Shown here piece by piece: positions 1 through 64,000 of a stretch of 64,000 bases of DNA. The stretch spans positions 466,404 to 530,403 of the forward strand of contig QPGO01000001.1 in assembly GCA_008632985.1 (NCBI GenBank). Direction: 5' to 3'. The position numbers and the translations under genes are program-made. The notes under the pieces were generated by a model that worked only from the letters and a program-made list of their open reading frames with translations, was not told the origin of the DNA and made no database searches. Origin of the DNA: Psammoneis japonica. Its lineage: Eukaryota. Position 1 is the stretch's first letter. Each line of letters starts with the position of its first letter.

Positions 1-620
1 ATCCCGTGTGCATGTGGACCATGCATGGCCAAGCTTCGACTTCCGTGGACTCCTGGAGTTCCTCCCGAAGAGCAACCAATGCACGCGGCAACGACAGACT
101 GCCACTGCTGTGCCCTCTTTGGGTCTCTCAATGACTGGCGAATTGTTGCCTTGGTGGACGGTGAGGATCATGATGCGGAAGAGGACGAGGTGGTGAAGTC
201 AAGTGTTCTCGCCGGCATGACGGAGACAATGGCGGACCTGATTCACCCTGGCGGATGCGGGGCGGTCTCGACAGATGATCCCACCACTGATGGTTGCTGT
301 GTTCTGCAATGGAAGGGTGAGCCTTTTACAGTTCAGGAGGATCGTGATGGAGTTCGAAAAGGAGATCTTGCAGTTGAGGGGGTTCACCTGACCCCAGTTC
401 CATGAGCCAAGCGTTGGTGCACAATGCCTCCTGCACAAGAGGAAAAAGGGCAAACAACAACGGTGAGACTCCAGTGTGTTGTAGCAGGAAAAATGGGTCC
501 ATTGCGAGAGGATGACGATGGCACAACAAGGCTCCCACGAAGTTGTGATCGAACACGTGCTAGACGACTCGGTGCAAGACACATGAGCAAACGAGATCAA
601 GAGACAATCTCAGATGAAAT
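1..620 (+). pseudogene. Degenerate 3' part of a probable transposon-associated ORF (family not identified)
   Basis: One frame runs through 25-405, a TGA, then 424 onward. Motifs such as DGCCVLQWKGEPFTVQED, VEGVHLTPVP and KRWCT read as an ordinary protein only if C/H are restored to Y. An acidic tail follows. Confidence 0.4.
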
Positions 621-840
621 TTCGCTCCGGGAAGTGATCGACTGTGAAGAGGCAGACAATGAAGATGATGATGACAACAGTGACTCCAACCATGACGAGG
701 AGGAGGGCATCAGCATCGCGGAGAATCTCAGCCTGTCTAGCAGCACCGGTGACTCCGAAAGCGAGGAGTCCGACCATGACCAACAATTTAGAAGCAACTG
801 TTGCAACCTTCACATTCTGCAATGAACTTGAAATAGAAAG

Positions 841-1437
841 AGCACAAGCAATGAATGGAAGAGAACAAGCAAATGCTCAACGACAATTCTTACCCGTAGG
901 CACCGCGGATGGAACATGCTGAGAACCGACGGGTGAGAATAGACCAAGCCTGTCAAAACCGCCAAACGCCCCTGAGTGCACCACCCACACACTGTTTTGG
1001 CATTCCTGCACAAACCAAGGACAGCACAAGCAATTGTGGGAGAGTAAAAGCAAACACTCAACGACTGTTCTTACCCGTAGGAACCGCGGATGGAACATGC
1101 TGAGAACCGACGGGTGAGAATAGATCAAGCCTGTCAAAACCGCCAAAAGCCCCTGAGTGTAAAACCTGCAAACTGTTTTGGCATTCCTGCACAAGCCAAG
1201 GACAGCATGAGCAATGAATGGAAGAGAACAAGCAAATACTCAACGACTGTTCTTACCCGTAGGCACCGCGGATGGAACATGCTGAGAACCGACGGGTGAG
1301 AATGGGTCGAGCCCATCAAAACCGCCAAACGCCCCTGAATGTGCCACCTGCACACTGTTTTGGCATTCCTGTGTAAACCAAGGACAGCACAAGCAATGAA
1401 TGGAATAGCAAAAGCAAATGCTCAACGACTGTTCTTA
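841..1437. repeat. Tandem repeat, ~181-182 bp unit, ~3.3 copies
   Basis: CCGCGGATGGAACATGCTGAGAACCGACGGGTGAGAAT recurs at ~903, ~1084 and ~1266. Unit starts are at ~841, ~1023, ~1205 and ~1387. Confidence 0.95.
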
Positions 1438-1909
1438 CTTTTTGCATCGATGGCATGAAACAGAAAACAGAAGAAAACAGAAGTGAGAAATAGAGCCCAT
1501 CAACTGATGCAACTGTGGAGGATGAACCGTGGCGAACGCAGCACTACATACAGTCCTTACAACAAAATAACATGAGGCGCCGACTAAAAGTGCATCAATC
1601 ACTGCAAAAGGGGTGTCATCGGGACCTTCCGTCCCATGGCAAGGCTGTGCTTTGTACATGTGGTTGTGGGATTCTTCAAGAGAAAAACGAAAACGATCCT
1701 TCGGCGGCATCTAGTGCGCTTACATGTTGTATGTTAATCTACAAACTATATAATCATTCACATATTAGGGAACTGAGAACAAGCATTAACGGTTTTTAAT
1801 TTTCATGTCCATTCTTTCAAAGAAAGATAAAAACGACTCGATCAAAAGAAAGCCGTTGACTTACGATGCAACTTGGGCAACGAAAAAGTGGCAATGCAAC
1901 GAAACGGAC

Positions 1910-1952
1910 TGTTTTGCAACACTAACGTGACTCTTGTTAGTGTTGCAAAACA
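1910..1952. repeat. Perfect 17-bp inverted repeat (hairpin, 9-nt loop)
   Basis: TGTTTTGCAACACTAAC (1910-1926), then GTGACTCTT, then GTTAGTGTTGCAAAACA (1936-1952). Confidence 0.9.
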
Positions 1953-2503: not shown

Positions 2504-3893
2504 GACTCAACGTCAAGCCGTTCTCGCCAATGTCATTTAGCGAAATCGCCAACACAAACTTTTTTAGCGATCACAATTGTTGCCCACACACAAATTCTGC
2601 GTGAGCCCTTTGAAATGCATTTGACAACTTCTTTTCACAAATGTCCGAAGAACAACAGCCATTCAATTTTCCCGTGCTCTCTTGACAAAAATGTTGTTTT
2701 GGACTCGAAAGTTTGTTTGCAAGTTAGCGACCACGTGAAAATGTGGCTCTGCGTGGAAAATGTCATTTTTGTGCACGATTTCATTCACGCGCGGCTGGAA
2801 CACGTCTTGGGTTGCATCCACAAAGTCTTCTTCACCTCCTCCACGAAGCCGCAAGACCAAATTGGCGTGATCTTGTGTTGTTGGGTCAGAGCAGAGTCAC
2901 TGTGCATGGGTTGATCTGGATCCCAGCAAGCTGGTTCTTGATTTTGCAGTTTCTGTCTTCCAGGTGCACAAATCCATGGGGTTTTGTGTTCTTGCAATTT
3001 GCCAGGTCAGGTGGTGATGTCTCCAATGCCAGCACCAAGAAGCTCTTGATGAAGAGCCATGAGCCAGGATTGTTTGGGCTGCAGCTCCTGCTGGTGAAAT
3101 TTGTCCAACACCTGCAGATGAGAAAGAAATTGCAGTGTGAATGAAACCTGGCATTTTTGCAGAAGGCCCCACTTCACCACATCATGTCTTTGCATGGTTC
3201 ATTGGTTGAGACACACACAATGATTTCCTGCAGCGAAGTCAATGTGCCATCGCGGCACAACTGTGCAAAGCGCTCACAGATTTGTGTTGATTCCACAACA
3301 AATGAAAACCAGTTGTTGTTCAGCAACTGCTGCAATTTTGTGCAAGTGGGTGTTGGTGATGGTGGTGTCATCAAATCATCATCGTTGCTTTTGTCGTTTG
3401 GCTCATTTGGATGCCACCCCCATGGCAACAACAAAGGATGCGGCACCCAAATCCATTGGACTGCATCCCCACCCCTCAGTCTTGACAAATTGTCTTGGAA
3501 AGACATGAAAGTCGACTGCCAAAACAGCAACAATGGTCAACAACAGAACACATGATCGACACACCGTCACAGCATCATGCTTGACTGCATCTGCAGCAGC
3601 AGCAACAGCAACAGCGACAGCATCCTTTGACTGTGGCTGCTCTGTTTGTCTTTGTTCATGAGTCGTTGACACTGTCGTTCTCTTTTTCTTCTCGACAACT
3701 GCCACAAACCAACCAATCAGGACTTGGGAACTGCAGCAGGCAACACCCGCAGGACACAACATGCAGCTTTGACAGAGAATCATGGGAGCTCCAAAAGCTG
3801 CAGCTTCCAGCAGGATGGAATGCCAAAAGTGCAAAGAAGTGGAGGATGATTGTGCTGCAATGGACACACTTGAGATGACAAAACCACAATCCA

Positions 3894-5584
3894 ATGGCCG
3901 GAGTTGAACAAACCAACAACAATTCTTGTGGTGTCATTCCTTCATGGCCCGTTGCAAAGTCTTGTTTTTGTTCCTTCCAAGAAGATGACGATGGAGTCAT
4001 TGACGACGACATGACGTCGACCCAAAGTTCCTTGTTTTTGTTCAGTTTCAAGTGGAGGAGGCAGACAAGTGTGGGGGCAGATGATTCAACTCTACGTGCA
4101 TGCAAAGTGTTGGCTGGCAAGGGCACCATCATGGTGAAAGTCTCGACAACCATTTCTTGTAGAATTCGGGATGTTGTCCCAGTTTCTGACTTGCATTTCA
4201 ACTGCCGGCACACACAAACAAAGATGGATGCTGCGTTCGAAGCTGTGGAGCAGATCGCGAATCGCTTGCACTTTCTCAAAGGGATCCCTCTTTTCCATGC
4301 GAGGGTTGTTGATGGGTTGATGAAAGCTCTTTCAGACGAGCACATGTGAACTACATTGCTGGCTAACCGCGAGCTTCCTCCGGACGCAAAATTCAATGAA
4401 ATGCCAAAGTCTTTGCTGAAAGCAATCAACCACCGGAGCCATCAAGATGTTTTTGTTGCCGTTTGAACCCTTGCAGCAGGAGGGAACATTCGGGATTTTC
4501 ATTTGAACACGAACATGAATTTAGCGGACGTTGCTCAGCCCATCGTCAAGGTGAACGACTGTCTCACCCTGTTGGTGCACTCAGGTGCTGCACCCGTGAC
4601 GCAAGAAGCAACGTTGGATGGAACGGGTGTGCAGACGATGTTTCGACCCACCAGCACCCATCACCAACAACCTTTGTTCCAAGCACTGGTGAACGACACG
4701 ATGGGCTGCCTGATGACGATGAGGACTCTAGATGACATGTGCGGTTCTGGGGCGAGACTCGTCGAAGATTTCATGCTCACGCTGCCGAAGTCTGGCATGG
4801 CATCGATTGCATCTTGGGCGGAAAAAGAACCGCATTCTCGGGTTGCAATTTCAAGGACACGTGGTCGGCCGTCTGTCGGATTTATTGACGTGTTCCAGCT
4901 CTGGGTGGGACCTCACACTGCTGAACTGTGACACAATTATTTTTTGTCATCCGTCGCATGTTTCGCATGTGCATTTCTGCGTGTTCTGTCATAAAAAATT
5001 GTTCCACACTGCCTGTTTTGCAAAGCCAAAGGCTTTCTGTTATCTGCACTTGTGTCAATGCAAATGCACTGGGCACATTCTTTGATGTCTAAAGAACACA
5101 CCCGGGCATGCTGTAAAGAATGCACTTCAAGTGTGGAGGAGGAGATACGTTCGCAAAATTGCCTCTTTTTCTGTTGGCGATCATTCACATGTCCATTGCT
5201 TGACAATTTTACTGCGGAGCTCGCACGCAGAATTCTACGGGCCCAATGTCACAAAAAGTCCCACCTGGGGCTGGAACCCATCTGTTGTTGAATGTTGCGC
5301 AAGAAGAGCCGCTGCCAGAATCTGGTCGAACTGATGTTGCTCTTTCGAATGATCATGTTCTTGTTGTGCTGGAACTTAAGCAAAAACCAGAGGCCCATCC
5401 GCGCGCACCTTCGAAGATGCGAGAGCACCACGAACAGCTTAAATCGTGTGTCGCTGAACACGCTCAAATGGAAAAGGGAAAAGGAAATCCAAGACTCGTT
5501 GCGGGCTTTGTGGTTGCCATGTATGACAGTGGCACCAAGCTCCAAATCGAACGGACTGCATGCGTTTGCTCTCAATTGGTTTGA
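3894..5584 (+). pseudogene. Degenerate AAA-ATPase-like / PD-(D/E)XK nuclease gene
   Basis: The C-terminal ORF 5246-5584 carries GRTDVAL...VVLELKQK...HEQLKSC, the GR.D...E.K...Q...Y pattern of PD-(D/E)XK domains. Upstream, LTLLVHSGA resembles the LL.YSG/TGY motif of the associated AAA-like region. Stops and frameshifts break the gene. Confidence 0.5.
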
Positions 5585-6239
5585 ATTAATTCTACCTTTT
5601 CTATCTAGCATTTTTACATGCGATAATTTTCGTTTTTGTTTGTTCGTTTTTTTCATCAAAAGATGACCTTTTTAAGCATGACGACGTAAAAAAGCTGAGC
5701 ACCCCACTGCACTGCGCTAAATTACCTGGAAGACACCGGAATTTCGTTCCACGAATGGAATTTCAGTCGCGCAGCCAGGCGAACCGCGTTAAGGAAGACA
5801 CGATTTATGGACCGGGACTCGCATTGCCGTTTGCTGGTAAACAACCGTTGTTAACGAAGCGACAAAAGGTGTGTTGTTAGAGATGATGTTCCTGGAGTGC
5901 ACTCTAAGAGTAGAAAAAAAGTGCACCAAGTGCACTGAGTGCACTGAGCAAAACTCTAAAAAATGCACAGAGTGACAATGTGGCAGAACCATTTTCCATC
6001 GGCTGTTCATCATCATCATTTGTGACGAAATGACTGTGATTGACGTTTCCATTGTCAAAAGTTTGTGAGACAAAACAATGAAATGAATCACGCGAAGAAT
6101 TAAAAATTCAAATTCAGCGGATGTTTGACCTTCATAGATGGATTTGACACAGCATGGAGCAAAGTGATGTCACCTCGCGAACACAGTTGGCCATGTTGGA
6201 CAACAACAACACCGACAATGGCGACAATGGCGGGGTTCC

Positions 6240-9200
6240 CAATTGACGCCCACGAAACCCCCTGCCAAAAGAGCAAGAGTGGAGACTCGAGACCTTGCCA
6301 TTCTTACGAGTGAGGAAGTGCAAGCAAAGAGATTGAGCAAGAAGACATGCTGCAATTGCACCTTGGGGTCAACTTGCCAAACACGCACTTGTTCATGCCA
6401 CAAACATGACCAACCGTGTGCCAACTGTGTTTGCTTCCACAAATGTGAGAACAAGGAAGGGCTCCCAACTTGCAGCACAAGCAACAGGAATTTGGACAAG
6501 AAGCCACAGAAACTTCCAACCTCCCCGGAAACCAGTCCACTTCAACTGAAAATTTGTCAATTCATCAACGACACTCCCTGATGCCGCCGACAAACAAAGC
6601 AAAAACAAGGCCAACACCAAAGCCAACAAAGAAAACATTGCACCCAATGATCAAGTGACGGATGCTGATGAGGGTGGAAATGATGAGGAGGTTGACACTG
6701 CCACAAGGGACAGTGCGCAGTTGGAAGACAGACAGGGCTTGGAGGGAGCTGCCGTTCCGTCAATTGACGACACCAATGACACACCCAACGACTTCAACTC
6801 AGATGCAGAACGGATCATCTGTGAGACACATGGCAAGACATGTCACCTCAGCAACGGCACTGAACTGGATGGTGGAACATTGGACAACAAGATGTGGCAA
6901 GAGCATTGGCGCCAGCCAATGCCCTGCCCACCGCAATGATGCAACACACCAAATGGATCAGTCGGCGAACGATTCATCACGACATTGGCAGAGCTGCGAG
7001 ATGGAGTCACGAGGCAGAAGTGGAACTCAGAAAGATTCACAGCACATCAGTCAGTTGTTTTGCAGTGGGATTGCAGTGAAACTTTGCTCAGCACGCGCAT
7101 GGACGATTGGGATGCAGGCAAGCACAAAATGCTGGTCCAGTCAATGGAACGGCTGCTTGAAGCTAACCTGAAGACCATCCAAGGGGAGGAGACGCCTGTG
7201 CAGCACGCCAAGACATTCAATGGAATGGTGCTCCGAGGGAACCTGCGTGGAGCAGTTGGGCACATCTCCGAATGCGAGAAAGGTGGAATCCTCTCACCGG
7301 ATGATTTCAACAAAAAAACCAACGACTCAGTGTTTGAGGCATTTCAGAAGAAACATCCAGACAAGAGGATCCCGGACGAAGACCATTTTCATAAGTTTGG
7401 TGAGTTGCCTGAGCCTCAGGACATGCTCATCACCGATGGAACCATCAAGACCGTCGCGCGCAGACTGTCCAGAGGTGCAGGACTTGGCAGATCTGATGCT
7501 GACACAGCATCAAAATGGCTTCTCTGTCACGGAAAGGCCAGTGGGTTGCTCAGAGAAACGACTTGTCGCACTGGACAAAAACCCGGGCGTGCGTCCGGTT
7601 GGCACAGGGGAGGCATGGCAACAAGCCACAGTCAAAGCTGTTCTCCCAGCTGCTGGAGCAGAAGCCAAGGAAGCTTGTGGGACAGACCAGCCATGTGCTG
7701 GACTAGAAGCAGGCATCGAGGGCACCGTTCATGCAATGAGCATGCTCTGGGAGCAACACAAATTCGAAGACGACTGCGGATTTCTTTTTGTCGATGCCTC
7801 CAATGGATTCAACAAAGAGAACAGGATCTTGATGCCACACAATGCAAGGCACCTTTGGCCATCCGGTGCAAGGTTCACCTTCAATGGCTGCAAGCACTGG
7901 AGCATCCTGATCATCCGTGGAATCTTTGGAACCACCTTCATTTTGCTCAGCAAAGAAGGCATGATGCAGGGCGATCCACTGGGTGTGGTGGCATGTGGAA
8001 TGGGACTTCTTCCACCAGTCCATGAGATGAATGACCGTTTCAAAGACGCACTCACCCCTTGGCATGCCAACGACTCCTCAGCAGCAGCCGGGAAATTCAA
8101 TGTCCTGCAGGACTTCTTCCTCACTCTCCGAGCCGAAGGCCCCAAACACGGGTGCTGCTCTGCCGACAACTCCAAGAACATCCCAGCAGTCCCAGAACGC
8201 AACCTGGAAAATGCCAGAGCATGCTTTGGAGACCTGGGCTTTACTGTCAAGTCTGGCAGCCGTTGCCTCAGAGGCTTCGTCGGTGAGACGGACGCACGTG
8301 ACCGTTGGCCAGCTGAAAAAGCCAAGTCGTGGACCTCGGTCGTCCAAGGACTCGCCAAGATTGTGATTCACCAACCTCAGACCGCCCATGCCAGTCTGCA
8401 GAAATCCCCACAACACCAACGGCAATGTGTCCAATGGGTGGTGAAGGACTGTGGCGAATCGTTTGCCGACGTAGAATGCACAATGCAGCGCAACTTTCTG
8501 CCAGCACTGACAGGCGAGACCTTGGCCGACGATGATCCAAGAACAGCCCCATCCGTCCTCCCAATCAAATTTTTGGGACTGTCCATCCCTCATCCAACTG
8601 AGTCCACAGCCCACAACTGTGAAGCAAGTGCTCTCACGTGCTCCCACGTGATCGACTCACTCCGCGGCCGCTCCCAGTTCTCCCCTGCAGTCCACAAGGA
8701 CACCATGCACAAAGTGAAGCAGGAAGCAGCCAATGGAAAAGTAAAAGTGCATGGGGAGACCCTAAAAATGATCATCAGGACCCCACCCAACCTTCAGGCC
8801 AGAGCTGTCAAGCGCAGCACCAAGACTGGAGCGTGGCTGTCAGCGTGCCCTTCGTCACTGAATGGCACGGAACTCTCTAGCCAAGAGTTCCGTGATGCAC
8901 TCTGTCTGCAACATGGTGGTGCTCCACCCAACCTCCCAAAGTGCTGTGATGCATGTGGATGCAAGTTCTCTGTGAATCACTTTCTTCAGTGCAAGGAGGG
9001 CGGCCCAGTCATCTCACGACATGATGAAGCACGTGACAACCCAGGTGACCCAATGGGCAAGGCTTACAAACCTTCCTCCTGCGTGTGCAACGAACCTCCA
9101 ATCAAACCCACTGGTTGCAGCGCAGGAAGCTCAAGCACCCCCAATGGTTCCCCAGGAAACACCTCCTCCAACAAGTCCAAGGATGGCGATCGTGGAGACC

Positions 9201-9850
9201 TTCTCGGCATGAGATTTTGGGATGGAAGGACAGACATGGTGACGGATGTTCGCATCCCCGACACGGGCGTGAAGTCACACCTGTCCAAAACACCAGAAGA
9301 AGTCCTGGCAAGCCACGAACGTGAAAAGAAGCGCAAGCACCTCCAGCCATGTCTGGAACAACGCCGTCACTTCGCACCATTCGTTGTGTCATGCGACGGG
9401 CTTCTCGGCAAAGAAGCCAAGGCGATGCTCTCCGCAAGACAGCATCGAAACTTTCAGAAAAGTGGCAAAAGCCACATTCTGAAGCATGCGGCTGCATCAA
9501 TGCAAGAGTGAGCATCACCACAGCCAGGGCAACCCACCGTCGCCTCAGGGGATCCCGCATTCCCGCCTCTCAGACAGCTCCTGGCGACCCCAGTGGGGGA
9601 AGATGGCGCAGGTCTGTCCCTTTGCAGACACTAAACGAACCCGATGCAATCGACCCCCACCTATCCAGACCATTAACCAACCGACAGTCCACAGAGATTA
9701 CTAACACCACGCCTAGAAGACAACAAACACCCATCATCATGCTGAACACGGCGCCAGAATCAGTTCAAAATTCGCGCGCACTGCCTGTGTACGAAATTGC
9801 GCGTGTCAACCACCCCTTACTCGTACGATTGCATTATGATAACTAAATAA
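6240..9850 (+). mobile_element. Non-LTR retrotransposon, CRE-like (RT + Zn knuckle + restriction-like endonuclease), degenerate
   Basis: Cys-rich N-terminus (6243 ORF). RT motifs GVRPVGTGE, FVDASNGFN, EGMMQGDPLG and WHAND (expected WYADD). C-X2-C...H...C knuckle followed by RHD. RLE motifs RGDL...DVRI...EREKKRKH...PFVVSCDG. There are several frameshifts, and the boundaries are approximate. Confidence 0.88.
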
Positions 9851-10047
9851 TACAATATCCATTTTCTTATTTTGCATCCTAAAGCTTGTAAACATCATAA
9901 AACAAAAAAAGTATACAGATTAGAATAGATCGTTACAAATTGAAAATTTTGAAAGGATCGCGTTGAAGCCTTTGATCGACATGACAATCGGCAAGTCCAC
10001 CGCCTTGATCAGCTCCATCATCTTTTTGTCGCCGATCCAACGCGTCC

Positions 10048-12225: not shown

Positions 12226-12419
12226 CTCACGAGATATATTCGCAAGCAAGTGAAAGTGACATTTATCTCAATACGCATAACTATCAAAATTTTTAACATA
12301 CAAAATCACGTCAGAAACAATGCCCAGCTGGTTTCGCAGTGATTTGTCAAACACATGTTAGAGGCTAGCACATCGCTCCAAAAGGTAACTTCAAGTTAAC
12401 CAACAAACTCATTTACAAG

Positions 12420-18150: not shown

Positions 18151-18492
18151 TGGTTCTGTGCCAAAACCAGCACCGCTGCAAACAAGCAAGGTCACATCAG
18201 AGTGCACGAAATGTTAAAAATGTGTGGATTTGCATGATGACAATTTGTTAAAATGTTGCAAAATGTCATTGTCACATGATGAAAGGCCAACCTCTGGTTG
18301 CAAGTTTGGTGTGCCAACATTGCAACAACTTGTTGAGAATCATGCACGCTGTTTTTTCACCACATCCACATCACCATTTCTGCCTCCACCTTGTTGCCAC
18401 ATGCCAATGCGTGATTGCATTGCCACACAAACCTTGGTTTGTTAATTTTTGCAAACATTGTTTCAAACAAGAAAAACATTTCATCGGCCAAG

Positions 18493-41915: not shown

Positions 41916-42097
41916 ACAGCAGTGAAGTTGTCGCGTGCATCAATGAGAAAAGGACTCTTGCACCTTTTCTTGAGTTTGCAAGCTTGCTTGCTTGCTGTGC
42001 AGCAGATCTACAGAGGCACAACCAAGCATCACAAAAATGATCTCGGGTTTGCATTTTGCGTTGTGCAAACAACACAACAGAAGCAAAAATGAAAAAA

Positions 42098-47825: not shown

Positions 47826-48003
47826 CACGATTTTTCCCCGAGTTTGCGAGCTCGCATGTCAAGACATACCAGGAGAGCTGTAGATTCTACAGAGGCATGA
47901 CCGAGCGTCGCGAAAATGATGTCGGGTTCGCATCGTTCTCATGCACACATACAGTGCAGAACAACTCGATGCTGATTTTTGTGGATTTTTCGCAGTAATC
48001 ATC

Positions 48004-52799: not shown

Positions 52800-53050
52800 C
52801 AGAGCCAGATCTTTTCCATGTCCTTGTCAGCAGATGGAAGCACTGCAGGAGAGGCATCAATGGCAAGGAAAACAGTTGGGATGTGTGCACCCGCATTTTA
52901 TGATTTTGTCTCTTTCACAAAAAAACCAATTTGTGCAATGGAGTCATGCAGAGTTCTCCTTCTCACTCAAGATGACTGGCACACAATCATCATGTTTGTT
53001 GTTGAATTTCAGAAGACAGTGACATGGCATCACATGTCCACCATGTGGAG
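52800..53050 (+). pseudogene. Relic of an FG-GAP gene 3' end and 3' flank
   Basis: TGTCCTTGTCAGCAGATGGAAGCA...ATGATTTTGTCTCTTTCA...CTCCTTCTCACTCAAGATGAC matches 38580-38760. Confidence 0.7.
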
Positions 53051-53924
53051 AAGTGCAGAGATTGAGTGTGGCTTGAACTCAACACCAACCATCCTGAAAA
53101 TGAGAGAGGAGCCACTTTTGGCTCACACAGGGCTTGGATGGTGTCATCTGCAATGTGCTGAGAAGCTGGCATCATTCTTCCACCTGAGAGATCAATGGTG
53201 CAAGTGCTGCAGTCAAGCAAACTTGTTGCAGAATGGAGCTTTTGAATTGACTGGAATGTGAAATGTGAAGATCAATGGTTGGATCAAGAAGGGGCTGCTT
53301 GATGTTCCATTGAACAGAGCCCAGTTGGAGAGGATCTGTTGCTTGCAGCATGTGGAACATTTCATGGAGAACATGTGAGGAATGACTGGCTTGTTCAACA
53401 ACATGATTGACTTCTCTGACAAGGAATGAGATGCAGGTCTGCACTGATGCAATCTTGAGGATGTCAGCACTGAGACAACAGGATTTGCTGATGTTGGTCT
53501 GGTTGCTGTGCCCAAGGGGGCGGTGTTCCCCAGCGCTGTTGACCCCAATTTTTAGAAACATGGATGTGAGTGGCAGGATTGTGTTGGAGCATCTAGATTT
53601 GGGGCATTGCAAGAGGCATTGACACGTTGAAGAAAAGATGCATGACTCCTGATGTGGCCTGAAGAACGGTTCTTTGGGTGGAGAATCTCACTGCCATCAA
53701 TCATTTGCCTTTGATTTTCATCTCACTCTTTGGAGCAAATTGTTTGGTGTGTCTGTTGGCATCACTGGGGGCCTGTTGCACACAATGTTTCAGCTCCCAT
53801 GTTAACTGGCTGTTTGGCAACCCACAGCCACCACATTCAGCACCAAGGTGAGTGCAACCAGTGTCACAGGCAGGAACAAGCCTGACAGGATTCCATCCAT
53901 CACATTTCTTCTCCATCATCAACT

Positions 53925-54130
53925 CTCTCTGAATGATTTTGACAATGATTTCAAGAATCCCCAACACCGAGACAAAGATTTCCACAAACAAAATCTTGAC
54001 AAATGCAGACAACAATTTCAAGAATCCCAACGTCTCAAGGCAAAGATTTCCACAATGAAAATGTTGAAAACTGCAGACTGTGGCTTGCATTCTGATCATC
54101 TGCCTCCAAGGCACACAATGATCTGGCAAA
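53925..54130 (-). pseudogene. Relic of the V-ATPase c'' fragment (partly duplicated)
   Basis: Translates FVKILFVEIFVSVLGILEIIVKIIQ. AAGATTTCCACAA occurs twice. Confidence 0.65.
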
Positions 54131-54250
54131 GCCAACAATGCAATGCCCGGTGCTTGCACACGCAATCATGAAAAAGAGAATGACAACAATTCCGTGTGCA
54201 ATCATCTGATGACAACAACTGCCACGCTGCATTGTGCCACACATTTTTCT

Positions 54251-54252
<2 letters not shown>

Positions 54253-54332
<80 letters not shown>
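54253..54332. repeat. Compound (TG)n(AG)n microsatellite
   Basis: Direct reading. Confidence 0.95.
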
Positions 54333-54333
<1 letters not shown>

Positions 54334-54776
54334 ACAATGGATTTGAAAATCGATTGATCGAGTCCGCCAGTCAGTCTTCTGCTTGGACATTTTTAACACA
54401 GCGACAACCTCGCCACACACATTGACAACAGCAGCCAGCTGCTGAAAAAGCCACTGCAAAAGTCTTGCTCCTGACTTCAGCCAACATTGTTGTGCTCACT
54501 GTTTGTCAAATGATTGGACCAACATCGGAGCTGGCAGCTCCACCTTGGCTGCTTTTGCTGGCGTGTTTGCCACATTTGACGGAAAATCAGCTGTGCTGAT
54601 TTTGTCGTTTGCTCCAGAGAGAGAGAGAGAGAGAGAGTGAGTGAATGAAAGAGAGAGACAGAGAGCACAGCTTTCAGATTTAAAAAAAAATTCTCGCAAC
54701 AATGCCAAGCTGTGGGAAGGGGGTGGGGGAGCGGCGGTGGCAATTTGGGGACAATGTGCACAGCAATGACATGTCG

Positions 54777-55052
54777 TGACAGGATTTGAACAGGATTCAG
54801 GTGCGCGCGAAACATCGCGCGCTGTTTAGTTTACCGTGCACAGTTTTGTGTGCTTTGGTTCCGCGCGGTCGCGCGCGATGTAGTTTGCTTTCGAGCCACA
54901 AGGCTCACAAGAATAACAACAGTGGCCCGATCACACCGACTCACACGTCTTTCGGCTCCTGTGATGGTCTCTGAGCGGAGACTCATCTGCCATTTAGACA
55001 GCAGCAAGGAGTCATTGTTTGAATTCTTGCCATTTGCCTTCAATTTCTGTCA
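54777..55052 (+). repeat. 5' LTR
   Basis: TGACAGGATTTGAACAGG...CAATTTCTGTCA, with terminal inverted TGACAG/CTGTCA. Confidence 0.97.
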
Positions 55053-55653
55053 GATTGACAGTCTTGCTCATTGTCAACCCATTGAGCAACCGCCATCGTC
55101 GTCGTTGATTTACCGATGATGCCATCTCAATTCTGCGTGGACCTCCGTGTGTGTTCTACGTGCATCGGCAAGTCCACGCGCATTCAATGCCAGGGCATCG
55201 GCAGGAAGTTAACGTCACCGTCAAGTCTCCTTGCCGCTGGACATCTGGATTGATCACATTGCCTTTGATCGCTGAAGACATGCATTCAACGGTCATGTCC
55301 AAGTCCATCCTTGATCCTCATCCCTTGATGTGCCCATTCAATGGTTGACGGTCAAGAACCCTGCATGTTCAAGGATCTCCGTCGCTGAAGACACACATGC
55401 GCTGCTCCGCTCGCAAGCAACCCAAAGCACCACCAGCTGCGGGTTCGGACGTGCCGGCACAACTCTACGGACCGGATGGGAAGTTTAGCACTTGACAACG
55501 AACGGGACAGCACAGCCCGGCGACTTCTGATTTTAAGGTGGTTCAAGATTTCAAGTCAAGTCTGTTTCAAGTCAAGTCCATCCTCACCCAAGTTTCAAGT
55601 CTGCCTTCGCTTCCCAACAAGAATTGCTTGTCCTGACACCACTTTTGTCCACC

Positions 55654-58600
55654 ATGGTTCTCACTCGTCAGCAACAAACCGATGGTTTCGAGCACGTTGT
55701 TGGAACCGTGCTTGCCCAAGGTGCTGGGAGCCCTCTTCGTTTGGCTTTGACCCAAGACGGCACGGACTCGTGTCAAGAACTGTTCATGTTCATGCTGTCC
55801 CAAATCAACTCGCTTGAGCACGACAACGGCACCAATGTGATCCCTTTGCCCCGCGGTTGTAAGAACATGTTAGCAGCTCCAATTGGTCTGCACATTGTCA
55901 AAGCACACGAAGGTCTTGACGTTGCCAATGACTCCTCGTTGTTCACGCATGACGAGTTCCTTGCCTGCCGCCTCAGCCCCGACTGCATGTCTTCTGTGTC
56001 CGTCGGCAGCTCACCCCTCACACCTCTGCATGTCACCAACCCGACCAAGGCACGCGACCCGGTGCGAGACTTCAAGTGAGGCATCAAGCATGACCCCGCC
56101 GCTTTCACGGCTCTCAAATCCGACAAGCAGTGGCACACTTGGCACACCTCACTTGTGGCACAAGCCCGTGCCCAAGACGTCGAGTGCATTCTAGACTCGT
56201 CGTACAAACCGACCAGCCCCGAAGACAAACTGCTCTTTGCTGAACAGCAAAAGCACATGTTCGCCATCTTCGAATGCATTCTTCTCACCGACAAGGGCAA
56301 GGCTCTCATTCGCGAAAATGTGGGGTCTTCTGACGCCCAGACCGTCTGCCGCGCCTTGTCTGAGCATGCGCTCGCCTCCACCCGCGCATCTGTCGAGTCC
56401 TCCACCTTGCTCACTTGCCTTGCCACCACACGTCTTGGTGATGGCACTTGGAAAGGTCCGACCCACGGGTTCATCCTCCATTGGCAAGATCAGTTGCGCA
56501 AGCACGAGGCACTCATCCCGGCCAGTGACCACTTCTCTGAAGGACAGAAGCGCGTCATGCTCGAGAATGCCGCACACCCTGTCAAGGAACTCCGTGCTGT
56601 CAAGAACCAAGCTGATCAGCATCGCACGCAGAGTGGCAAGAGCCTCACATGCGATCAATGCTGTGGCTTGCTCCTCTCCGCAGCGGCTCAATGCGACAGC
56701 GCATTTCAACCCAAGACGACACCTCGAGCCACCCGACGTGCCACACACGCACACGACGTTCACTCCGAGGAACCGTCCGACGATGTGTTCTGTGACATTG
56801 ACAGCGACATTGACGTCCTTCAGGCCAATGCTGCCTGCACCCGTGGTCCCAGCCTCACCGGTGACCAATGGAAATGTCTCCCCCCCGACCACCAATGGAT
56901 TTGTGATTCGTTGCCCCATTCCTCCAAGGCAATCATCCTGGAGCATTCTCGTCCGCCTCCCCATGACCCGCGAGACAGCAACTGCCATGAGTCCGTTACG
57001 GTCAACCTTCACGACCAACGCCTTGGGAGTGACGGTGATGTCAACTTGTCCAACACGACTCCTGCTGACTCTGGTGACCCCGCTCCAAATGTGGGTGCCA
57101 CTTCGGATGATCCCATCCTGGCACACCTCACCAAGCACAAGCCACTGCCACCCGGTGATCTGCAACGTCTGTTGTCTCCTAACCAAGCCCCCAACACCAG
57201 TCGACCGGGGCCATCCGCCACTCCCTCCACTCCGCCAGCTCCTGCCGATGACACAGAACTTGACGGCCGCACTTGCCGCCGCGTTGACAACCACAATGTC
57301 ATTTGCTCTGCCTCTGCTCATCGCTCCACACGCACTGGTGCTCCAGTCGATTGTGGGGCCAATGGCGGCATTGCTGGCGACGACGTTCGCGTCATTGCAC
57401 GCACCTCTCGCCAAGTCGACGTTCAGGGCATTGACGACCATCAATTGGTGGACATCCCCATTGTCACCGCTGGTGCCGTCATTGAGACCCAGCGTGGTCC
57501 CGTCATCGCCATCCTTCATCAGCACGCATGCACAGGCAAGGGCAAGACCATTCATTCCTGCGGCCAACTCGAGTGGCACAAACAGGATGTCAACGATCGC
57601 TCTGTCAAGGTGCCCAACGGCTTGCAACGCATTGCCACTCCTGATGGCCATGTCATCCACATTGACATCAAGGGCGGCTTGCCTTGTGTTGCCATGCGAC
57701 CTCACACTGACGCCGAATGGGACACCCTGCCCCATGTCATCCTCACCGGTGATGACACATGGGATCCTTCCATCCTCGATCACTCTGTCACTGACGACGA
57801 CCAGTGGTGCGACGCGATCTCTGACCCACAGGACGATCCCACTGCCAACCCATTTGACGAATGCGGCAACTGCCGTCATCGTGTCGTTGTCAACAAGACC
57901 ATCATGTCCACTTCCTTGTCTGCCGATCACGCGTCCGCCCTCGATGATCACCTCATTCCGAACAACGACGTGTTCTGCGAGTGTCATCCACACGCGATTG
58001 ACCCCAAGGACGACGACGTTCCGCCCCCGGAGCGCACTGTGCAGCCCAAGGACCCCCCCTTCGAGTCTCTTCGGCCTTGCTTTGGCTTCCTCCCTGCCGA
58101 TGCGGTCCATCGCACTTTTGTCTGCACCACGCAGTGCATCCGCATGCCCGCCGGTGCACACCTTGGGAAGGCCCACAAATCACCCAACCCCGCCCTTAAT
58201 GTGCACCGCCGCAATGAGCCCATCGCCACTGACACCGTTCATGCCGACACCCCGGCCATCGACTCTGGTTGCACCAGCGCCCAACTGTTTGTTGGCACCG
58301 AGTCTACCGTCACTGACGTCTGCGGCACCAAGATGGACAAAGAGTTTGCCAACACACTCGAGGATCAGATCCGGGAGCGCGGTGCCCCATCCAAACTCAT
58401 TGGCGACCGTGCTCAAGTTGAAATCAGCAACAAGGTGCTCGGGATCCTACGAGCCCTCTTCATCTCCAGCTGGCAAAGTGAGCCTCACCAGCAACACCAA
58501 AACTTTGCCAAGCGTCGACACCAGACTGTGAAGCGCATGGCGAACACTGTCATGGATCGTTTTGGTTCGCCCGCCCACACATGGCTGCTGGCGCTCATGT

Positions 58601-61323
58601 GTGTGTGCTTCATGCTCAACCACACAGCATCCCCACGTCTCCACTGGCGCACGCCCCTCGAGACTCTCACTGGCTCCACCCCAGACATCAGCCCATTGCT
58701 TCGCTTTCACTGGTGGGAACCCGTGTGCTTCCACCTCGATGACTCCGATTGGCTGTCCGAATCCCGTGAGTTGCGTGGACGCTTTGTTGGCATTGCTGAG
58801 CACGTCGGCCACCAGATGACCTTCAAGATTCTCTCTGACGAGACTCAAAAGATCCTCTGCCGGTCCAACGTACGCTCCGCTGCCACCGATCCTGCCGCTC
58901 GAAACCTGCGTCTTGATCCTCCTGATGGGGAGCCACCTGAACCCATCATCAAATCTTGCCATGACGACAACCCCGTTGATTCTCCTGATGGGGAGATCAG
59001 GACACCCAAGATGCCAGTTTTCGATCCGCAAGACATCATCGGATGCACCTTCCTCATGCAGCCACAAGAGGACGGACAACGCCACAGAGCTCGCATCGTC
59101 AAGGCCGTCGAAGACCATGAATGGAAAGTGAATGGCAATCCCGAGCTCACCAAGTTTGTCTGCTCTGTCAACAACGATGAATGCGAGGAAGTCCTTGCCC
59201 ACAACGACATCATGAATCACATTGAGCAAGAAGACGAAGACACCACTGTTTGGAAATTTCGACGCATCGTGTCACACGAAGGACCTCTGAAGCCTCATGA
59301 CCCAACCTGGAAAGGCTCAAGCTACAACATCATGCTTGAATGGGAAAGTGGGGAGATCACGTCCAAGCCTCTTGCCATCATCGCCAAGGACGACCCCGTC
59401 ACCTGCGCCATCCATGCACGAGAGAACGGACTTCTCGACACTGATGGCTGGAAGCGGTTCCGCACCATCGCGAGGTGCCAAAAGAAGCTGTTTCGCGTGG
59501 CCAACCAAGCCAAGCTTTGCTCCTTCCACACTGCACCTCGAGGCAAGTACGGATGCGAAGATCCCCGGAACTGCAAACACACCATGTCACCAGACGAACG
59601 CAATGGCAACCGCAAATGGGGAGATGCAACTAATCTCAAGATGGACCAACTCGAGGAATGCGAAGTCTTCCATGACTGCGGGCCCTTCGAGTCTTCCACT
59701 CCTCCTGCGGGACACAAGAAGATCCGAGTGCACCCAGCGCACGACGTGAAACACAACGGTCGCCACAAGGCACGACTCGCAGCCGATGGGCACCTCATGG
59801 ATGCACCTGTCGACAGTGTCTGCTCCGGAGCAGTCTCCCTCCGTGGCCTTCGGCTGATGATTTTCCTGGCTGAACTCAACGAGTTGGAGACATGGGCCAC
59901 CAACATTGGCAATGCCCACCTTGAAGCCACCACCAAGGAGAAGCTCTACATTGCAGCCGGACCCGAATTTGGCAAACTCGAAGGACACATCCTTGTCATC
60001 CACAAGGCCCTGTGTGGACTCCGCAGCTCTGGTCTCCGCTGGCACGAGCGCTTCGCCGACTGCCTGCAAGCTGAAGGATTCTTCCCCTGTCACGCCAAAC
60101 CCGACATTTGGATGCGCAGGAACGGCAACCACTGTGAACACATTGCCATTTATGTGGATGACCTCGCCATTGCCATGAAGGACCCTCAATCTTTCGTCGA
60201 CACTCTCACAAAAAAGCACAAGTTCAAGCTCAAGGGTGCGGGGCCCATTGAGTTCCATCTGGGTTGCGACTTTTCCCGGGATCCCGACGGAACCTTTTGC
60301 CTGTCTCCGCGCAAGTGCATCGAGCGCATGGTCGACAGCCACGCCCGACTGTTTGGGGAGAAACCCACCACCAACGCCCTGTCACCTCTGGAGAAGGGTG
60401 ACCACCCCGAACTGGACACTTCCGAACTGCTGGGGCCCGATGGCATTCACAAGTTCCAGTCTCTTGTTGGTTCACTCCAATGGGCAGTGTCCCTTGGTCG
60501 AATTGACATCACCACAGCCATCATGTCACTCTCTAGTTTCTGAGCTGCACCCCGTCAAGGCCACTTGGATCATGCCAAACGCGTCTGTGGGTGCCTCTCC
60601 AAGATGCGACACGGCACTCTCCGTGTTCGCACGGAAGAGCCCGACTGTTCGGATCTCCCTGCCCCGGCCTGTGAATGGATGCATTCCATGTACGGCGAAG
60701 CAGAAGAGATGATCCCAAAGGACGCTCCACCGCCCCTTGGCAAGTTCGTCACCACCACCCACTGCGTCGATGCAAACTTGCACCATTGCATGCTCACCGG
60801 ACGCTCTGTCATGGGAATGCTCCACTTCCTCAACAAATTCCCGGCTGACTGGTTCTCCAAGAAGCAAGCCACCATGGAGACTGCGACCTGCGGGTCTGAA
60901 TTTGTTGCCGCAAGGACTTGTGTTGAGCAGATTGTTGACCTGCGCATCACCCTGCGCCACCTTGGCGTCCCGACCCGCAATGTCAGTTGCATGTTCGGTG
61001 ACAACAAGTCGGTTGTAGACAGTGCCACCATCCCGCACTCCAAGTTACACAAGCGACACACCGCACTGTCGTTCCACCGTGTGCGTGAGGCAATTGCCTC
61101 TGGTTGCCTTGAGCTCCACTTCATCGAAGGCTCCCGCAACCCTGCTGACATTCTCAGCAAGCATTGGGGTCACTCCCAAATCTGGGACCTTCTCCGCCCC
61201 CTCATGTTCTGGAACTTCATTCCATCCAAAGTCGAATCTGTTTCTGTGGCTCCTCGAGCAAACTGGGGAGTGACAGGATTTGAACAGGATTCAGGTGCGC
61301 GCGAAACATCGCGCGCTGTTTAG
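55654..61323 (+). pseudogene. Copia gag-pol polyprotein with two in-frame TGA stops
   Basis: Single frame with stops at 56077 (FK*GIK) and 60541 (SF*AAP), both explicable as CGA->TGA. Motifs are protease VDCGANGG, integrase TDTVH...SEPHQQHQN, RT KARL...YVDDL and RNase H VDAN...GSEFVAA...NPADILSK. Confidence 0.93.
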
Positions 61324-61546
61324 TTCACTGTGCACAGTTTTGTGTGCTTTAGTTCCGCGCGTTCGCGCGCGATGCAGTTTGCTTTCGAGCCACAAGGCTC
61401 ACAAGAACAACAACAGCAGCCCGATCACACTGACTTGCATGTCTTTCGGCTCCTGTGATGGTCTCTGAGCGGAGACTCATCTGCCATTTAGACAGCAGTG
61501 AGGAGTTGTTGTTTGAATTCTTGCCATTTGCCTTCAATTTCTGTCA
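61271..61546 (+). repeat. 3' LTR
   Basis: Collinear with the 5' LTR and the same length. Confidence 0.97.
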
Positions 61547-61950
61547 TGTCGAAGCATGAAGGCAAATGAACGTCATCTGGCTCAAGCTCTTGAACAGAGC
61601 CCTGTTGCACTGGACTTGGCAGGTGGGTTTTGATGCACAAGCCAAGTCAGAGCTCAAAGCAAAGGCCTCTTGTTGAGGCGCACCCAAACCGTGGTGAGGT
61701 GCGAGGGCGCGCAGAAGGAGTGCCTTGCCAAACCTGAGAGCCACGCAGTCAAAGCAGTCTTCAACACAATTTTTTTCTTTTCTGCACTGAAGACAACTGC
61801 ACTTTTGCTTCCTTCGAGGTGAAAAAAGCAGCTCTGCCAGCTAGAGAGTGCAGTGGAGAGAGACAGGATCCACAGCAGCCCAGTTCGTCACCCACATGAA
61901 ACGATGAGGCTGCCATGAGCTTAGAACAGGCCGCTTGCGCTTTTTTCTGG
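61547..61950 (+). repeat. Upstream module of the FG-GAP unit (continues from 54737-54776; not followed by the gene)
   Basis: Matches 36110-36580 and 28925-29330 up to GCGCTTTTTTC, then homology stops. Confidence 0.88.
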
Positions 61951-62222
61951 AATAGATTTGGCAACTTTCAGAAGAAGTAACCCGAAAGTTCTCTGAAAGT
62001 TGATGCAAATATAACATCACATGTCTGCACACACACATGACCTTGAAACGCGCCAGAATTTTTACATCATCAGATTCACCACCACCCGCAAGACTTCTGC
62101 GACACCGTGCTAAAGTTCGAGACTAGAGACACGGCACGGAGGAGACATCGTCTCACAAAAAAGCAGACGCAGCCACACAGCTGTCACAGAAGCCACCCGC
62201 AACAACAGAGCAGCCGTGCAGC

Positions 62223-64000
62223 ATGCCCACTTCGACCCTTGAGGCGCCAATCATGAAGGCGTCTAGGGCCCCTTCTACCACAAGTGGCGACAAGTCTGCA
62301 ATCAAAACGTTTGACGCGTTTCAAGACAAAAAACAAGACAAGCCGTTTCACGGATTGGAGGAACGTCATGTGGATGGATGCCACCTCAGGACACTTGTGA
62401 TGCGCTTCAGCAAGTTCTTGTCGGATGAGCCCATCTGTCGGTATGACAATCCCTCCAACGGGCTAGCAGGAATTGACGGAAAGCAGCGAATTTTTGGAAA
62501 GGTCAAAGAAGCGCTAAAAATGAAGTTCCCCAAGCACCCTGACTGGGAAGACGAGGACAAGTGGCACAAGCCTCTGTTCAAAGATGTGGCAAAGGCCACT
62601 GATAAAGCCAACCTCCTTAGCATGGAGTGTTCTGACAAAAGGACTTTGCCCCTGGTTCCAAACGTGTCTTCAGAATGTGTTCGAGCCAAGCAGCGAAATG
62701 CTGTTCTTACGTCTGACAGAAATTCAATGTTGAGACGCGAGAACGGTGCATTCGCAAACGACATCGAGACGTTGCTTCTTGCTCTTGTTCTGCAATGCAA
62801 TTATCCAATGATGAACAATGGCCCTCTTCAGCAGCGTTGCTGGATTTTGATGGGTGCCATGGCTGCTGGACGTGGAGGGGAAGTGAGGCATCAACGGCAC
62901 GATGAATGGTTCTGGGATTTATTTTATGAGAATTTGGAAGCAACGTGGTGTGAGCCGAAGACTGTGGATTTGTGTGGACTCCTCTTCCCACCAAACAAAA
63001 AGTCTCATCTCTTTGATCTCTACCATGCTTTCGCGTGTTTCTATTCTTGTGAGAAAGGTCTCTATCGTCCAGACAGCATGGAGAAGGAGCTCCACAAGCA
63101 CACTTTTCCAGACTTGTGGAGCGTGAGCGACAAGTGTGTTGCCGCTAAGTTGACGTCTATTGTTCGAAGCAAGGTCAACCCGGTTCTACAGAACGATCAT
63201 TCTTCTAAGTCCATTCGAGTTGGCATGGCTACATTCTTGAATTCGCATCGAGGAGTGTCAGTTGAAGAAGCGGACGCTCGAGTTGGATGGGCGCCCGGAG
63301 CTGCCAATGGCAAGACTTACAAACGAATTACACCGCAGCTCACTCTTCCAGCGGCAAACGCGATGATGGGCTGGGATGACACTGCCGGCAAGAAATTTGC
63401 TCCAAACTTGGAATGCCTTGGGAGCCATGTGCAAGATGATGTTGAACGTCTCATTGAAAAATTGCACATGATCTCTGACTCTCTTGCTCAATTTCTGAAA
63501 GGAGGGGAGCTGCGTCCCTTCTTGCGTTCTTGCACGGCTAGTGTGATTCGGCATCACGCTGAAGTTTCGAAGGAGCTTCGTCAAAACCATCAAATCGTGT
63601 ACACGTTGGAGCGTGCTGCAGCAGAAGCGAAGATTCGTGATGGTGACACGGCTGACACCTCACAAGTGCTTCGGATCTGGGGAAAGAAAATAGACGCTAG
63701 CTTTCAAGACCGCAACCCGGATCTTTCAAGTGACATCAACCTTGCTTTACAGATAAAGCAGCAGAATGAGCTATTGTCTCGTGCATTGTCAGTGTGTGAT
63801 GCACAACGTACCGAGCTTTCCGAGCAAGCCCACGCGATTCGCAACTTGGAGATGGCTCAGCTTGAGGCCAATCAGTCCAGTAAGAAAAGGAACATTGAAC
63901 TCCTATCATCGGAGGAGGAAGATGGCACGACGGATTTTGCGGACGAAAAAATATCCAATCGAGACGGCGGCATCGAGTGCAACGTCATTGATGAAAACGC
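62223..64000 (+). CDS. Tyrosine recombinase, Crypton-like (open to the window end; absent from the ORF track because no stop is reached)
   Basis: My translation from ATG 62223 is open to 64000. It gives MAAGRGGE (Arg, ~62871), WCEPKT (Lys), SSKSIRVG (~63201-63224), ARVGW and GKTY (Tyr, 63318), the R-K-xxR-W-Y catalytic set of tyrosine recombinases. Confidence 0.82.
   Translation, partial: MPTSTLEAPIMKASRAPSTTSGDKSAIKTFDAFQDKKQDKPFHGLEERHVDGCHLRTLVMRFSKFLSDEPICRYDNPSNGLAGIDGKQRIFGKVKEALKMKFPKHPDWEDEDKWHKPLFKDVAKATDKANLLSMECSDKRTLPLVPNVSSECVRAKQRNAVLTSDRNSMLRRENGAFANDIETLLLALVLQCNYPMMNNGPLQQRCWILMGAMAAGRGGEVRHQRHDEWFWDLFYENLEATWCEPKTVDLCGLLFPPNKKSHLFDLYHAFACFYSCEKGLYRPDSMEKELHKHTFPDLWSVSDKCVAAKLTSIVRSKVNPVLQNDHSSKSIRVGMATFLNSHRGVSVEEADARVGWAPGAANGKTYKRITPQLTLPAANAMMGWDDTAGKKFAPNLECLGSHVQDDVERLIEKLHMISDSLAQFLKGGELRPFLRSCTASVIRHHAEVSKELRQNHQIVYTLERAAAEAKIRDGDTADTSQVLRIWGKKIDASFQDRNPDLSSDINLALQIKQQNELLSRALSVCDAQRTELSEQAHAIRNLEMAQLEANQSSKKRNIELLSSEEEDGTTDFADEKISNRDGGIECNVIDEN

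Follow-up and report, generated by a model that had tools for sequence, protein, structure and literature searches.

Domain-restricted loss of TpA to TpG and CpA in Psammoneis japonica: a candidate hypermutation process on resident transposon-rich DNA

Across a 64,000-nt stretch of the Psammoneis japonica genome (assembly GCA_008632985.1, contig QPGO01000001.1, positions 466,404-530,403 of the forward strand; hereafter the window), TpA is the sole grossly abnormal dinucleotide, with an observed-to-expected ratio (o/e) of 0.19, compared with 1.55 for CA and 1.57 for TG. The deficit falls in long blocks that hold a copia retrotransposon, other probable transposon DNA and fragments of host genes, whereas host genes and their flanks retain TpA. 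We consider it probable that a DNA-level process converts TA to TG or CA on resident DNA of transposon-rich domains, as in the alga Bigelowiella natans (Mettrop et al. 2026, bioRxiv 10.64898/2026.01.13.699255).

TpA-poor blocks and the copia retrotransposon

Segmentation with a two-state Poisson hidden Markov model (HMM) in 100-bp bins yielded nine TpA-poor (LOW) and nine NORMAL blocks. The LOW blocks total 44,300 bp (69% of the window) and contain 159 TA (o/e 0.06; 0.36% of dinucleotides), where about 1,439 would be expected at the density of the NORMAL blocks (19,700 bp, 640 TA, o/e 0.46). CA and TG reach o/e 1.65 and 1.71 in LOW DNA (mean 1.68), against 1.32 and 1.28 in NORMAL DNA, and AT, AA, TT and TC stay near their NORMAL values (TC, 1.04 versus 1.11). 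Seven LOW blocks span at least 2.3 kb, with a maximum of 11.6 kb; the three longest TA-free runs measure 1,368, 1,262 and 1,086 bp; and the block boundaries are sharp at 100-bp resolution. A preliminary description of this DNA had reported TpA to be nearly absent over long blocks. The HMM bears this out and reproduces the blocks listed there, the sole mismatch being the end of the first of them, which falls at 4.9 kb rather than 5.5 kb. The LOW blocks called by the HMM, none of them stranded, are:

1-700: TA o/e 0.08, CpG o/e 0.72
2601-4900: TA o/e 0.05; contains the GWT1 fragment
6001-9600: TA o/e 0.06; contains the open reading frame (ORF) 7172-9511 (+ strand)
12601-13900: 1 TA in 1.3 kb, CpG o/e 0.18
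16801-25900: TA o/e 0.06; contains ORFs 20536-21669 (- strand) and 21653-23956 (- strand)
26101-29200: adjoins the 16801-25900 block; TA o/e 0.01, CpG o/e 0.11
31701-35800: TA o/e 0.06, CpG o/e 0.40
39201-47700: TA o/e 0.05, CpG o/e 0.36
50301-61900: TA o/e 0.07; contains copia together with some 350 bp of flank on its 3′ side

The element in the last block belongs to Ty1/copia by its RVT_2 match (E 1.1e-20), its 276-bp long terminal repeats (LTRs) with TGACAG...CTGTCA ends, and a 5-bp target-site duplication (TGTCG, at 54772-54776 and 61547-61551). Its parts are:

54777-55052, + strand: copia 5′ LTR with TG...CA ends; 5 TA against 16.4 expected, 20 CpG against 17.8 expected
56080-60543, + strand: copia gag-pol frame of 1487 codons with RVT_2; Tyr 0.3%, Cys 3.5%, His 5.6%; the frame breaks at 60543/60544
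61271-61546, + strand: copia 3′ LTR; 3 TA against 16.7 expected

The deficit is visible in the encoded proteins. Tyr accounts for 5 of 1487 residues in the copia frame, 1 of 779 in ORF 7172-9511, 0 of 767 in ORF 21653-23956 and 0 of 377 in ORF 20536-21669, matching the scarcity described earlier, while host ORFs contain 1.3-3.8% Tyr and the best 150 copia homologues have a median of 3.7% Tyr with about 1% Cys. All eight peptide motifs quoted in the preliminary description are present in translations of the window: five lie in the copia frame (VCSGAVS, NAHLEA, ALCGL, VHPAHDVK and KCIER), ATCGSE lies in the frame that continues past the break, and WHAND and KRKH lie in ORF 7172-9511.

To establish the direction of change, we searched 1.84 billion representative proteins (50% level) for copia homologues, of which the best is 58% identical over 787 aa, and aligned copia residues 701-1487 with the best 12 of 150 homologues. 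At the 15 columns that are at least 70% Tyr, the window copia has one Tyr, six Cys (all TGY codons), six His (all CAY codons), one Phe and one Gly, such that 12 of the 14 changed residues are TGY or CAY. The sole conserved Tyr retained is that of the YVDD motif. Other conserved residues are mostly retained at 81-100%, the exceptions being Val (56%), Thr (71%) and Glu (75%). The even split between Cys and His indicates that both strands are affected and that the two products are about equal. Of the substitutions originally proposed, Tyr to Cys or His is thus well supported; Leu to Pro and Val to Ala find weak support, with Ala at 3 of 18 conserved Val and Pro at none of the conserved Leu. Metagenomic loci related to this copia have TA o/e of 0.61-0.79 in all three cases found (51-55% protein identity, none of the same family), and therefore the clade is not natively TA-poor.

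A second copia family shows a comparable pattern. The ENA metagenome protein P0087, encoded on a 10-kb contig and 47% identical to the window copia, has no Tyr in 381 aa, with 6.3% Cys and 5.8% His; at 13 conserved-Tyr columns it carries 9 Cys, 3 His and 1 Phe, and HVDD replaces YVDD. This hints that the TpA-loss signature may be present in other environmental data.

The LTR pair allowed us to time the loss, as an element integrates with two identical LTRs. Over 277 aligned bp the pair now differs at 12 sites: four CA/TG doubles, four TA versus TG or CA, three CG versus TG or CA, one transversion, and no other transitions. Three single hits at about 20 CpG sites predict roughly 0.05 opposite-direction CpG doubles, against the four CA/TG differences seen, and the doubles therefore descend from TA sites changed independently in each LTR. 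By this count 8 of the 12 sites are TA-derived and 11 are TA- or CG-derived; in three control pairs of gene paralogues, such classes account for 88 of 347, 88 of 409 and 113 of 498 difference sites (21-25%). At least 10 TA sites are visible at insertion, compared with 16.5 expected from composition, which is an ordinary TpA content. Since then, 5 and 7 of these (at least) 10 sites have gone from the two LTRs, which have 17 CpG but only 2 TA in common. Rough losses per site are about 0.9 for TA, 0.08 for CpG and 0.002 for other sites, making TpA loss roughly tenfold faster than CpG decay within the LTRs. At least part of the TpA loss postdates insertion, which supports a process that acts on resident DNA after integration. 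The proposed direction, TA to TG or CA, is likewise upheld by the conserved-Tyr columns, the LTR pair and the host-gene fragments described below.

Because TAA and TAG stops are gone, several frames on each strand stay open and overlap at length across 56080-61320, among them 56194-58179 (- strand, 662 codons) and 56195-58528 (+ strand, 778 codons); such spurious frames would mislead gene callers. For annotation more broadly, loss of TAA and TAG opens extended spurious ORFs in all frames, and Pfam misses Tyr-free proteins, as it does the 779-aa probable reverse transcriptase in this window.

Spared genes and depleted gene fragments

Among the NORMAL blocks are those of the following host genes:

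9601-12600, + strand: NORMAL block with an intronless sulfatase gene (ORF 10009-12225), a spared control
13901-16800, + strand: NORMAL block with an FG-GAP_2 repeat gene (ORF 14793-16655), also spared
14793-16655, 29387-31425, 36957-38684, 47920-49905 and 62127-64000: tandem array of five intronless FG-GAP_2 paralogues in NORMAL DNA, 71-79% identity

Over all three codon phases, host ORFs have a TA o/e of 0.41-0.48. At four-fold degenerate third positions followed by A, the ratio is 0.49 (73 sites) in host genes versus 0.12 in transposable element (TE) ORFs, and the non-ORF part of NORMAL blocks (8 kb) contains 285 TA (o/e 0.48). Free sites in and around genes retain TA, and therefore selection alone cannot explain the contrast between LOW and NORMAL DNA. 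Within TE ORFs, the ratio is 0.03 in phase 1-2, that of Tyr codons, versus 0.08-0.09 in the synonymous phases; as Tyr codons are as depleted as synonymous sites, the affected copies are without protein-level selection. NORMAL blocks extend beyond the ORFs by about 150-1,150 bp on the upstream side and 150-520 bp on the downstream side, and the LOW state continues about 350 bp past the copia 3′ LTR into host-derived flank. The domain restriction claimed in the preliminary description thus holds across this one 64-kb window, where host genes and flanks keep TA even at synonymous sites.

The preliminary description proposed a candidate genome defence that it called RIP-like. A defence role is conceivable, but in the sense of repeat-induced the label draws no support from the repeats compared here. 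The FG-GAP paralogues (71-79% identity) and a tandem repeat (88%) are both spared. The tandem repeat, at 841-1438, is built of units of about 182 bp that are about 88% identical, and lies in a NORMAL block with a TA o/e of 0.49; because it retains TA, tandem repetition at about 88% identity does not attract the process.

The nearest protein to the host genes in a collection of 5.8 billion proteins is 48% identical. The named eukaryotic relatives of the sulfatase and FG-GAP genes are diatoms only (Cyclotella, Ditylum and Cyclostephanos, 35-36% identity), and on these matches rests the placement of the host as probably a diatom or a near relative, and probably not B. natans. In the protein atlas, sulfatase matches are bacterial sulfatase clusters only, and FG-GAP matches are mostly bacterial repeat proteins plus one diatom. 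Three of the FG-GAP_2 paralogues are preceded by a conserved unit of roughly 400 bp that is poor in TA in each of its three copies, and copia inserted about 15-20 bp inside this unit upstream of the last paralogue.

The LOW blocks contain, besides copia, further coding sequences and fragments:

3406-3933, - strand: fragment of the housekeeping gene GWT1 (glycosylphosphatidylinositol-anchor acyltransferase); 176 codons, 0 Tyr; Pfam E 5.4e-26 over profile positions 37-163 of 437
7172-9511, + strand: ORF, probable degenerate non-LTR reverse transcriptase, with WHAND and KRKH; Tyr 1 of 779
39149-39330, - strand: V-ATPase c″ proteolipid fragment at a block edge; AGYSMF in human, AGHGMF in the window (Tyr to His)
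42098-42555, + strand: FG-GAP pseudogene fragment in a LOW block; self-BLAST, 71-74% identity to 3 paralogues

All 30 protein-atlas feature matches of ORF 7172-9511 are RVT_1 clusters (score 0.97), which we treat as a lead only; neither this ORF nor ORF 21653-23956 has a Pfam or PDB match, and ORF 20536-21669 has no Pfam match. The two minus-strand ORFs, 20536-21669 and 21653-23956, are thus long and Tyr-free and matched no known family.

Host-gene fragments inside LOW blocks share the depletion. In the GWT1 fragment, the window has VTVCRSC where yeast Gwt1 (8xij) has ITAYRGG, again a Tyr-to-Cys change; the rest of the gene was not found among minus-strand ORFs of at least 35 aa between 2.2 and 5.7 kb. 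The FG-GAP pseudogene has lost 6 of 6 TA sites and 13 of 15 CpG sites, taking as ancestral those common to at least 3 of the 4 functional paralogues. That host-gene fragments in LOW DNA are TA-depleted like their surroundings shows that position in a block, rather than lineage, is what matters.

Diverged copies of the end of the V-ATPase c″ gene occur at 39149-39330 (- strand), 31767-31975 and 54014-54140, all at or near block edges. Two of them come after an FG-GAP paralogue, and the remaining one, at 54014-54140, is situated upstream of both the copia insertion and the 62127 paralogue. All three seem to belong to the ancestral tandem-duplication unit.

Sequence context, read support and competing explanations

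The TA dinucleotides that survive in LOW DNA are not a random sample. ATAC/GTAT has 0 survivors (368 expected), ATAG/CTAT has 1 (353 expected) and ATAT has 0 (179 expected); taken together, VTAT/ATAB has 1 survivor where composition predicts about 900. The remaining contexts survive at o/e 0.035-0.145, with TTAA the best at 0.145, and ATAA/TTAT, with 20 survivors, exceeds the prediction of a multiplicative model. TAG/CTA is also among the better-surviving contexts. TpA loss does not produce CG, and thus one change ends the susceptibility of a site. The neighbours of the 12 Tyr codons changed to Cys or His showed no clear rule for whether the product is TG or CA. We also compared LOW with NORMAL tetranucleotides for the base changed in ATA/TAT; the weak lean towards ATAy to ACAy is confounded by CpG decay and starting composition, and we do not use it.

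CpG is depleted in the same blocks (o/e 0.11-0.72). Over 41 LOW windows of 1 kb, TA and CpG o/e are correlated (Spearman 0.59, p 6e-5), which fits both decaying with age, TA first. The copia LTRs have a CpG o/e of about 1.0-1.1 while their TA o/e is 0.18-0.30. The gain in TG plus CA, about 0.76 o/e units, is close to the sum of TA loss (0.40) and CpG loss (0.43). CpG loss as the full source of the TG/CA excess is ruled out, as it accounts for only part. Two processes feed TG and CA, and the TpA process is the faster. The preliminary description had set this loss apart from decay of 5-methylcytosine (5mC) and from fungal repeat-induced point mutation (RIP), and both distinctions hold: the LTRs lost TA without losing CpG, and the loss of TpA with enrichment of CA and TG runs in the opposite direction to RIP.

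Logan contigs from a public sequencing run (X1) agree with the assembly at all positions of six LOW pieces of 461-2,054 bp, at a depth of 31-38 (42001-43719, 43878-44466, 44689-45149, 45521-46038, 51139-51656 and 52184-54237). Over copia (54777-61546), summed contig depth is about 57,000-122,000, compared with about 35 for the single-copy pieces, and the family is therefore extremely abundant. Among the 359 differences between X1 contigs and a 20-kb stretch, most of them on copia, 309 are transitions. The window reads TG at the conserved Tyr codon 548 (59821-59822), where about 19-26% of summed X1 depth has changes that would give CA, if both changes are in the same contigs.

Several lines of evidence bear on whether the TpA poverty could instead be native to the elements, through selection against TA or UA in the element or its RNA. 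Few single TA versus TG/CA differences appear among the best 40 rows of differences between copia copies, and the one conserved Tyr retained is the catalytic residue of YVDD, both as such selection would have it. Yet one survivor in 15 is also what 5-10% survival predicts, the LTRs began with ordinary TA content and have since come to differ at TA sites, Tyr codons show a depletion no weaker than that of the synonymous phases, related copia loci have normal TA, and host-gene fragments in the blocks are depleted too. This explanation is largely refuted, and we give it very little weight. We hold it just as improbable that a genome-wide bias from TpA to TpG or CpA operates without domain targeting and that purifying selection alone preserves TA in genes. 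The lowish TpA of NORMAL DNA (0.46) and raised CA at four-fold sites (1.61) would agree with such a bias; however, synonymous TA in host genes is no more depleted than the other phases, the 8 kb of NORMAL non-ORF DNA keeps its TA, and the block edges are sharp.

Adenosine-to-inosine RNA editing of retroelement transcripts by an ADAR-like or fungal TAD-like enzyme, fixed by reverse transcription before integration, would account for the prominence of retroelements, the best-studied targets here, and such enzymes favour U 5′ of the edited A (10.64898/2026.01.13.699255). On the sense strand, though, T-to-C changes are as frequent as A-to-G (6 His, 6 Cys), the LTRs differ at eight TA-derived sites, and the changes extend to host fragments other than retroelements and to about 350 bp of flank, so that pre-integration editing is already contradicted and hardly deserves credence. 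An artefact of assembly, base calling or polishing at modified TpA is highly improbable as well. Modified bases cause systematic miscalls in long reads, and the platforms of the assembly and of X1 are unrecorded. Against this, the k-mer contigs of X1 show no differences over the six LOW pieces, the LTRs carry opposite products (CA versus TG) in identical contexts, unlike a systematic miscall, and an unrelated metagenome assembly contains the Tyr-free P0087 of another copia family. The same signature also arose de novo in B. natans lines (10.64898/2026.01.13.699255).

Under the reading we favour, a DNA-level process on resident transposon-rich domains, T:A to C:G transitions turn 5′-TA-3′ into TG or CA in about equal share. 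Everything inside a domain is affected, including LTR and probable non-LTR retroelements, unclassified DNA and host-gene fragments, with domain edges lying a few hundred bp beyond neighbouring genes. The domains are probably silenced, probably cytosine-methylated, chromatin, and the net effect would be that transposon frames are destroyed, Tyr becomes Cys or His, and TAA and TAG stops vanish. The constraints above fit an enzyme that would read a short DNA motif in a particular chromatin state. The likeliest chemistry, which we put forward tentatively, is a putative TadA/ADAT2-type deaminase that would convert adenine after T to hypoxanthine, read as G. As TpA reads alike on both strands, deamination of one or the other would give TG or CA. 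The natural tRNA substrate of ADAT2-type enzymes is A34, which follows the invariant U33. ADAT2 is reported to be capable of DNA deamination in amphioxus (PMC10354150). Any candidate enzyme must reproduce the context fingerprint, in which VTAT/ATAB is all but extinct and TTAA survives best.

The same targeted process might alternatively act through the thymine of TpA, oxidised or otherwise modified (5-hydroxymethyluracil, 5hmU, or 5-formyluracil) by a TET/JBP-type dioxygenase, possibly as a silencing mark, and then mispairing with G. This is a less likely route, and we think it improbable. It predicts the same base-pair changes as adenine deamination, such that sequence cannot tell the two apart; 5hmU helps to silence TEs in dinoflagellates, and older work on Crypthecodinium, as related in PMC11572971, found T replaced preferentially in TA and TC. 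By contrast, a base-resolution map of 5hmU in Breviolum is described as having no sequence preference (PMC11071213), and TC is not depleted in LOW DNA.

Some points weigh against the reading we favour. Among the best 40 of 369 rows of copy differences (35 sites), 18 are CpG-type, 5 are CA/TG doubles and 3 are single TA versus TG/CA differences, and many TA losses in copia may be common to the copies and older than this insertion. Loss before insertion would imply either that copia spread while already TpA-poor or that neighbouring bases set the product at each site. In the FG-GAP pseudogene, 3 of the 6 TA losses are TAG-to-TTG transversions, albeit in small numbers. Run X1 is perhaps the source sample of the assembly, its platform being unrecorded, and the support it lends is not fully independent. 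The LTR rate ratios rest on one background difference, and an excess of "hundreds"-fold is to be read as an order of magnitude. Finally, the TAT/ATA preference does not match the known natural substrates of ADAT2 or the known neighbour preferences of ADAR.

More speculatively still, a chromatin-guided, TpA-specific enzyme, either a DNA adenine deaminase or a thymine modifier, may represent an old genome defence common to stramenopiles and rhizarians that would put transposons and integrated viruses permanently out of action, faster than cytosine-methylation decay, an idea we regard as doubtful at present. If it were true, the VTAT/ATAB preference would be the biochemical fingerprint of the enzyme, and comparison with B. 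natans would reveal that enzyme, possibly a natural DNA adenine deaminase.

Comparison with known systems

To our knowledge, few processes rewrite invading DNA by targeted mutation besides fungal RIP and animal APOBEC/ADAR. The window resembles RIP in its dinucleotide-specific transitions in resident transposon DNA, its wrecked frames and its leakage into adjacent sequence. However, RIP changes C:G to T:A, mostly CpA to TpA, thereby creating TpA and lowering GC, whereas here TpA is destroyed and GC rises; and RIP is triggered by duplication, whereas paralogues and repeats at 71-88% identity are untouched in the window. Deamination of 5mC gives the same products, TpG and CpA, and has acted in the same blocks (CpG o/e 0.11-0.72), but it cannot remove TpA, and the young copia LTRs have undepleted CpG. 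Animal ADAR and APOBEC likewise leave clustered, deaminase-type transitions in retroelement copies, and ADAR favours U before the edited A. Their substrates are RNA or pre-integration cDNA, and they mark one strand, whereas the changes described here affect both strands, follow integration and extend to DNA other than retroelements. Silencing by 5hmU in dinoflagellates places a thymine mark on TEs, with an old report of a TA/TC preference; it is described as epigenetic, without a reported mutational signature (PMC11572971).

The closest counterpart is that of B. natans. The preliminary description knew of no account of such a system, a statement superseded by the preprint of Mettrop et al. (10.64898/2026.01.13.699255), which reports hypermutation exclusively at TpA, to TpG or CpA, in B. 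natans mutation-accumulation lines. According to its main text, 210 of 211 mutations in the nucleocytoplasmic large DNA virus (NCLDV) region and 20 of 20 in the virophage region are A to G or T to C, the GC-biased ones all falling on TpA. The rate there is given as about 6e-7 against a baseline of 3.5e-10, or about 1000-fold, with activity in some lines only; TpA-poor clusters are enriched in reverse transcriptase and DDE domains, and the authors hypothesise a role for ADAT2 (10.64898/2026.01.13.699255). Our literature search, which did not extend to subscription journals, found no second description of TpA-removing hypermutation, and in the main text of the preprint we came across neither flanking-base context nor LTR dating.

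As that preprint describes it, the two cases share a change of TpA only, to both TpG and CpA, that is confined to foreign or invading DNA, at a rate that in B. natans is orders of magnitude over background. Every sequence-level feature of the B. natans phenomenon is found in the window. The two differ in their targets, which in B. natans are integrated NCLDV and virophage DNA where TA still makes up 3.3% and 9.2% of dinucleotides, respectively, compared with 0.36% in the LOW blocks here. They differ too in how the rate is obtained, by direct measurement in B. natans (about 1000-fold) and here by LTR arithmetic that gives a rough few hundred-fold. B. natans is a chlorarachniophyte (Rhizaria) in which the change was measured de novo, whereas the host of the window, probably a diatom, is known from sequence alone. 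New here are the probable stramenopile host, the near-saturation of retrotransposons, the LTR-dated change after insertion and the flanking-base preference. The same signature in a probably unrelated host suggests a process widespread among marine protists and not peculiar to a single species, and provides a second genome for a comparative search for the enzyme. A natural deaminase for adenine in double-stranded genomic DNA would be of interest to both base editing and evolutionary biology.

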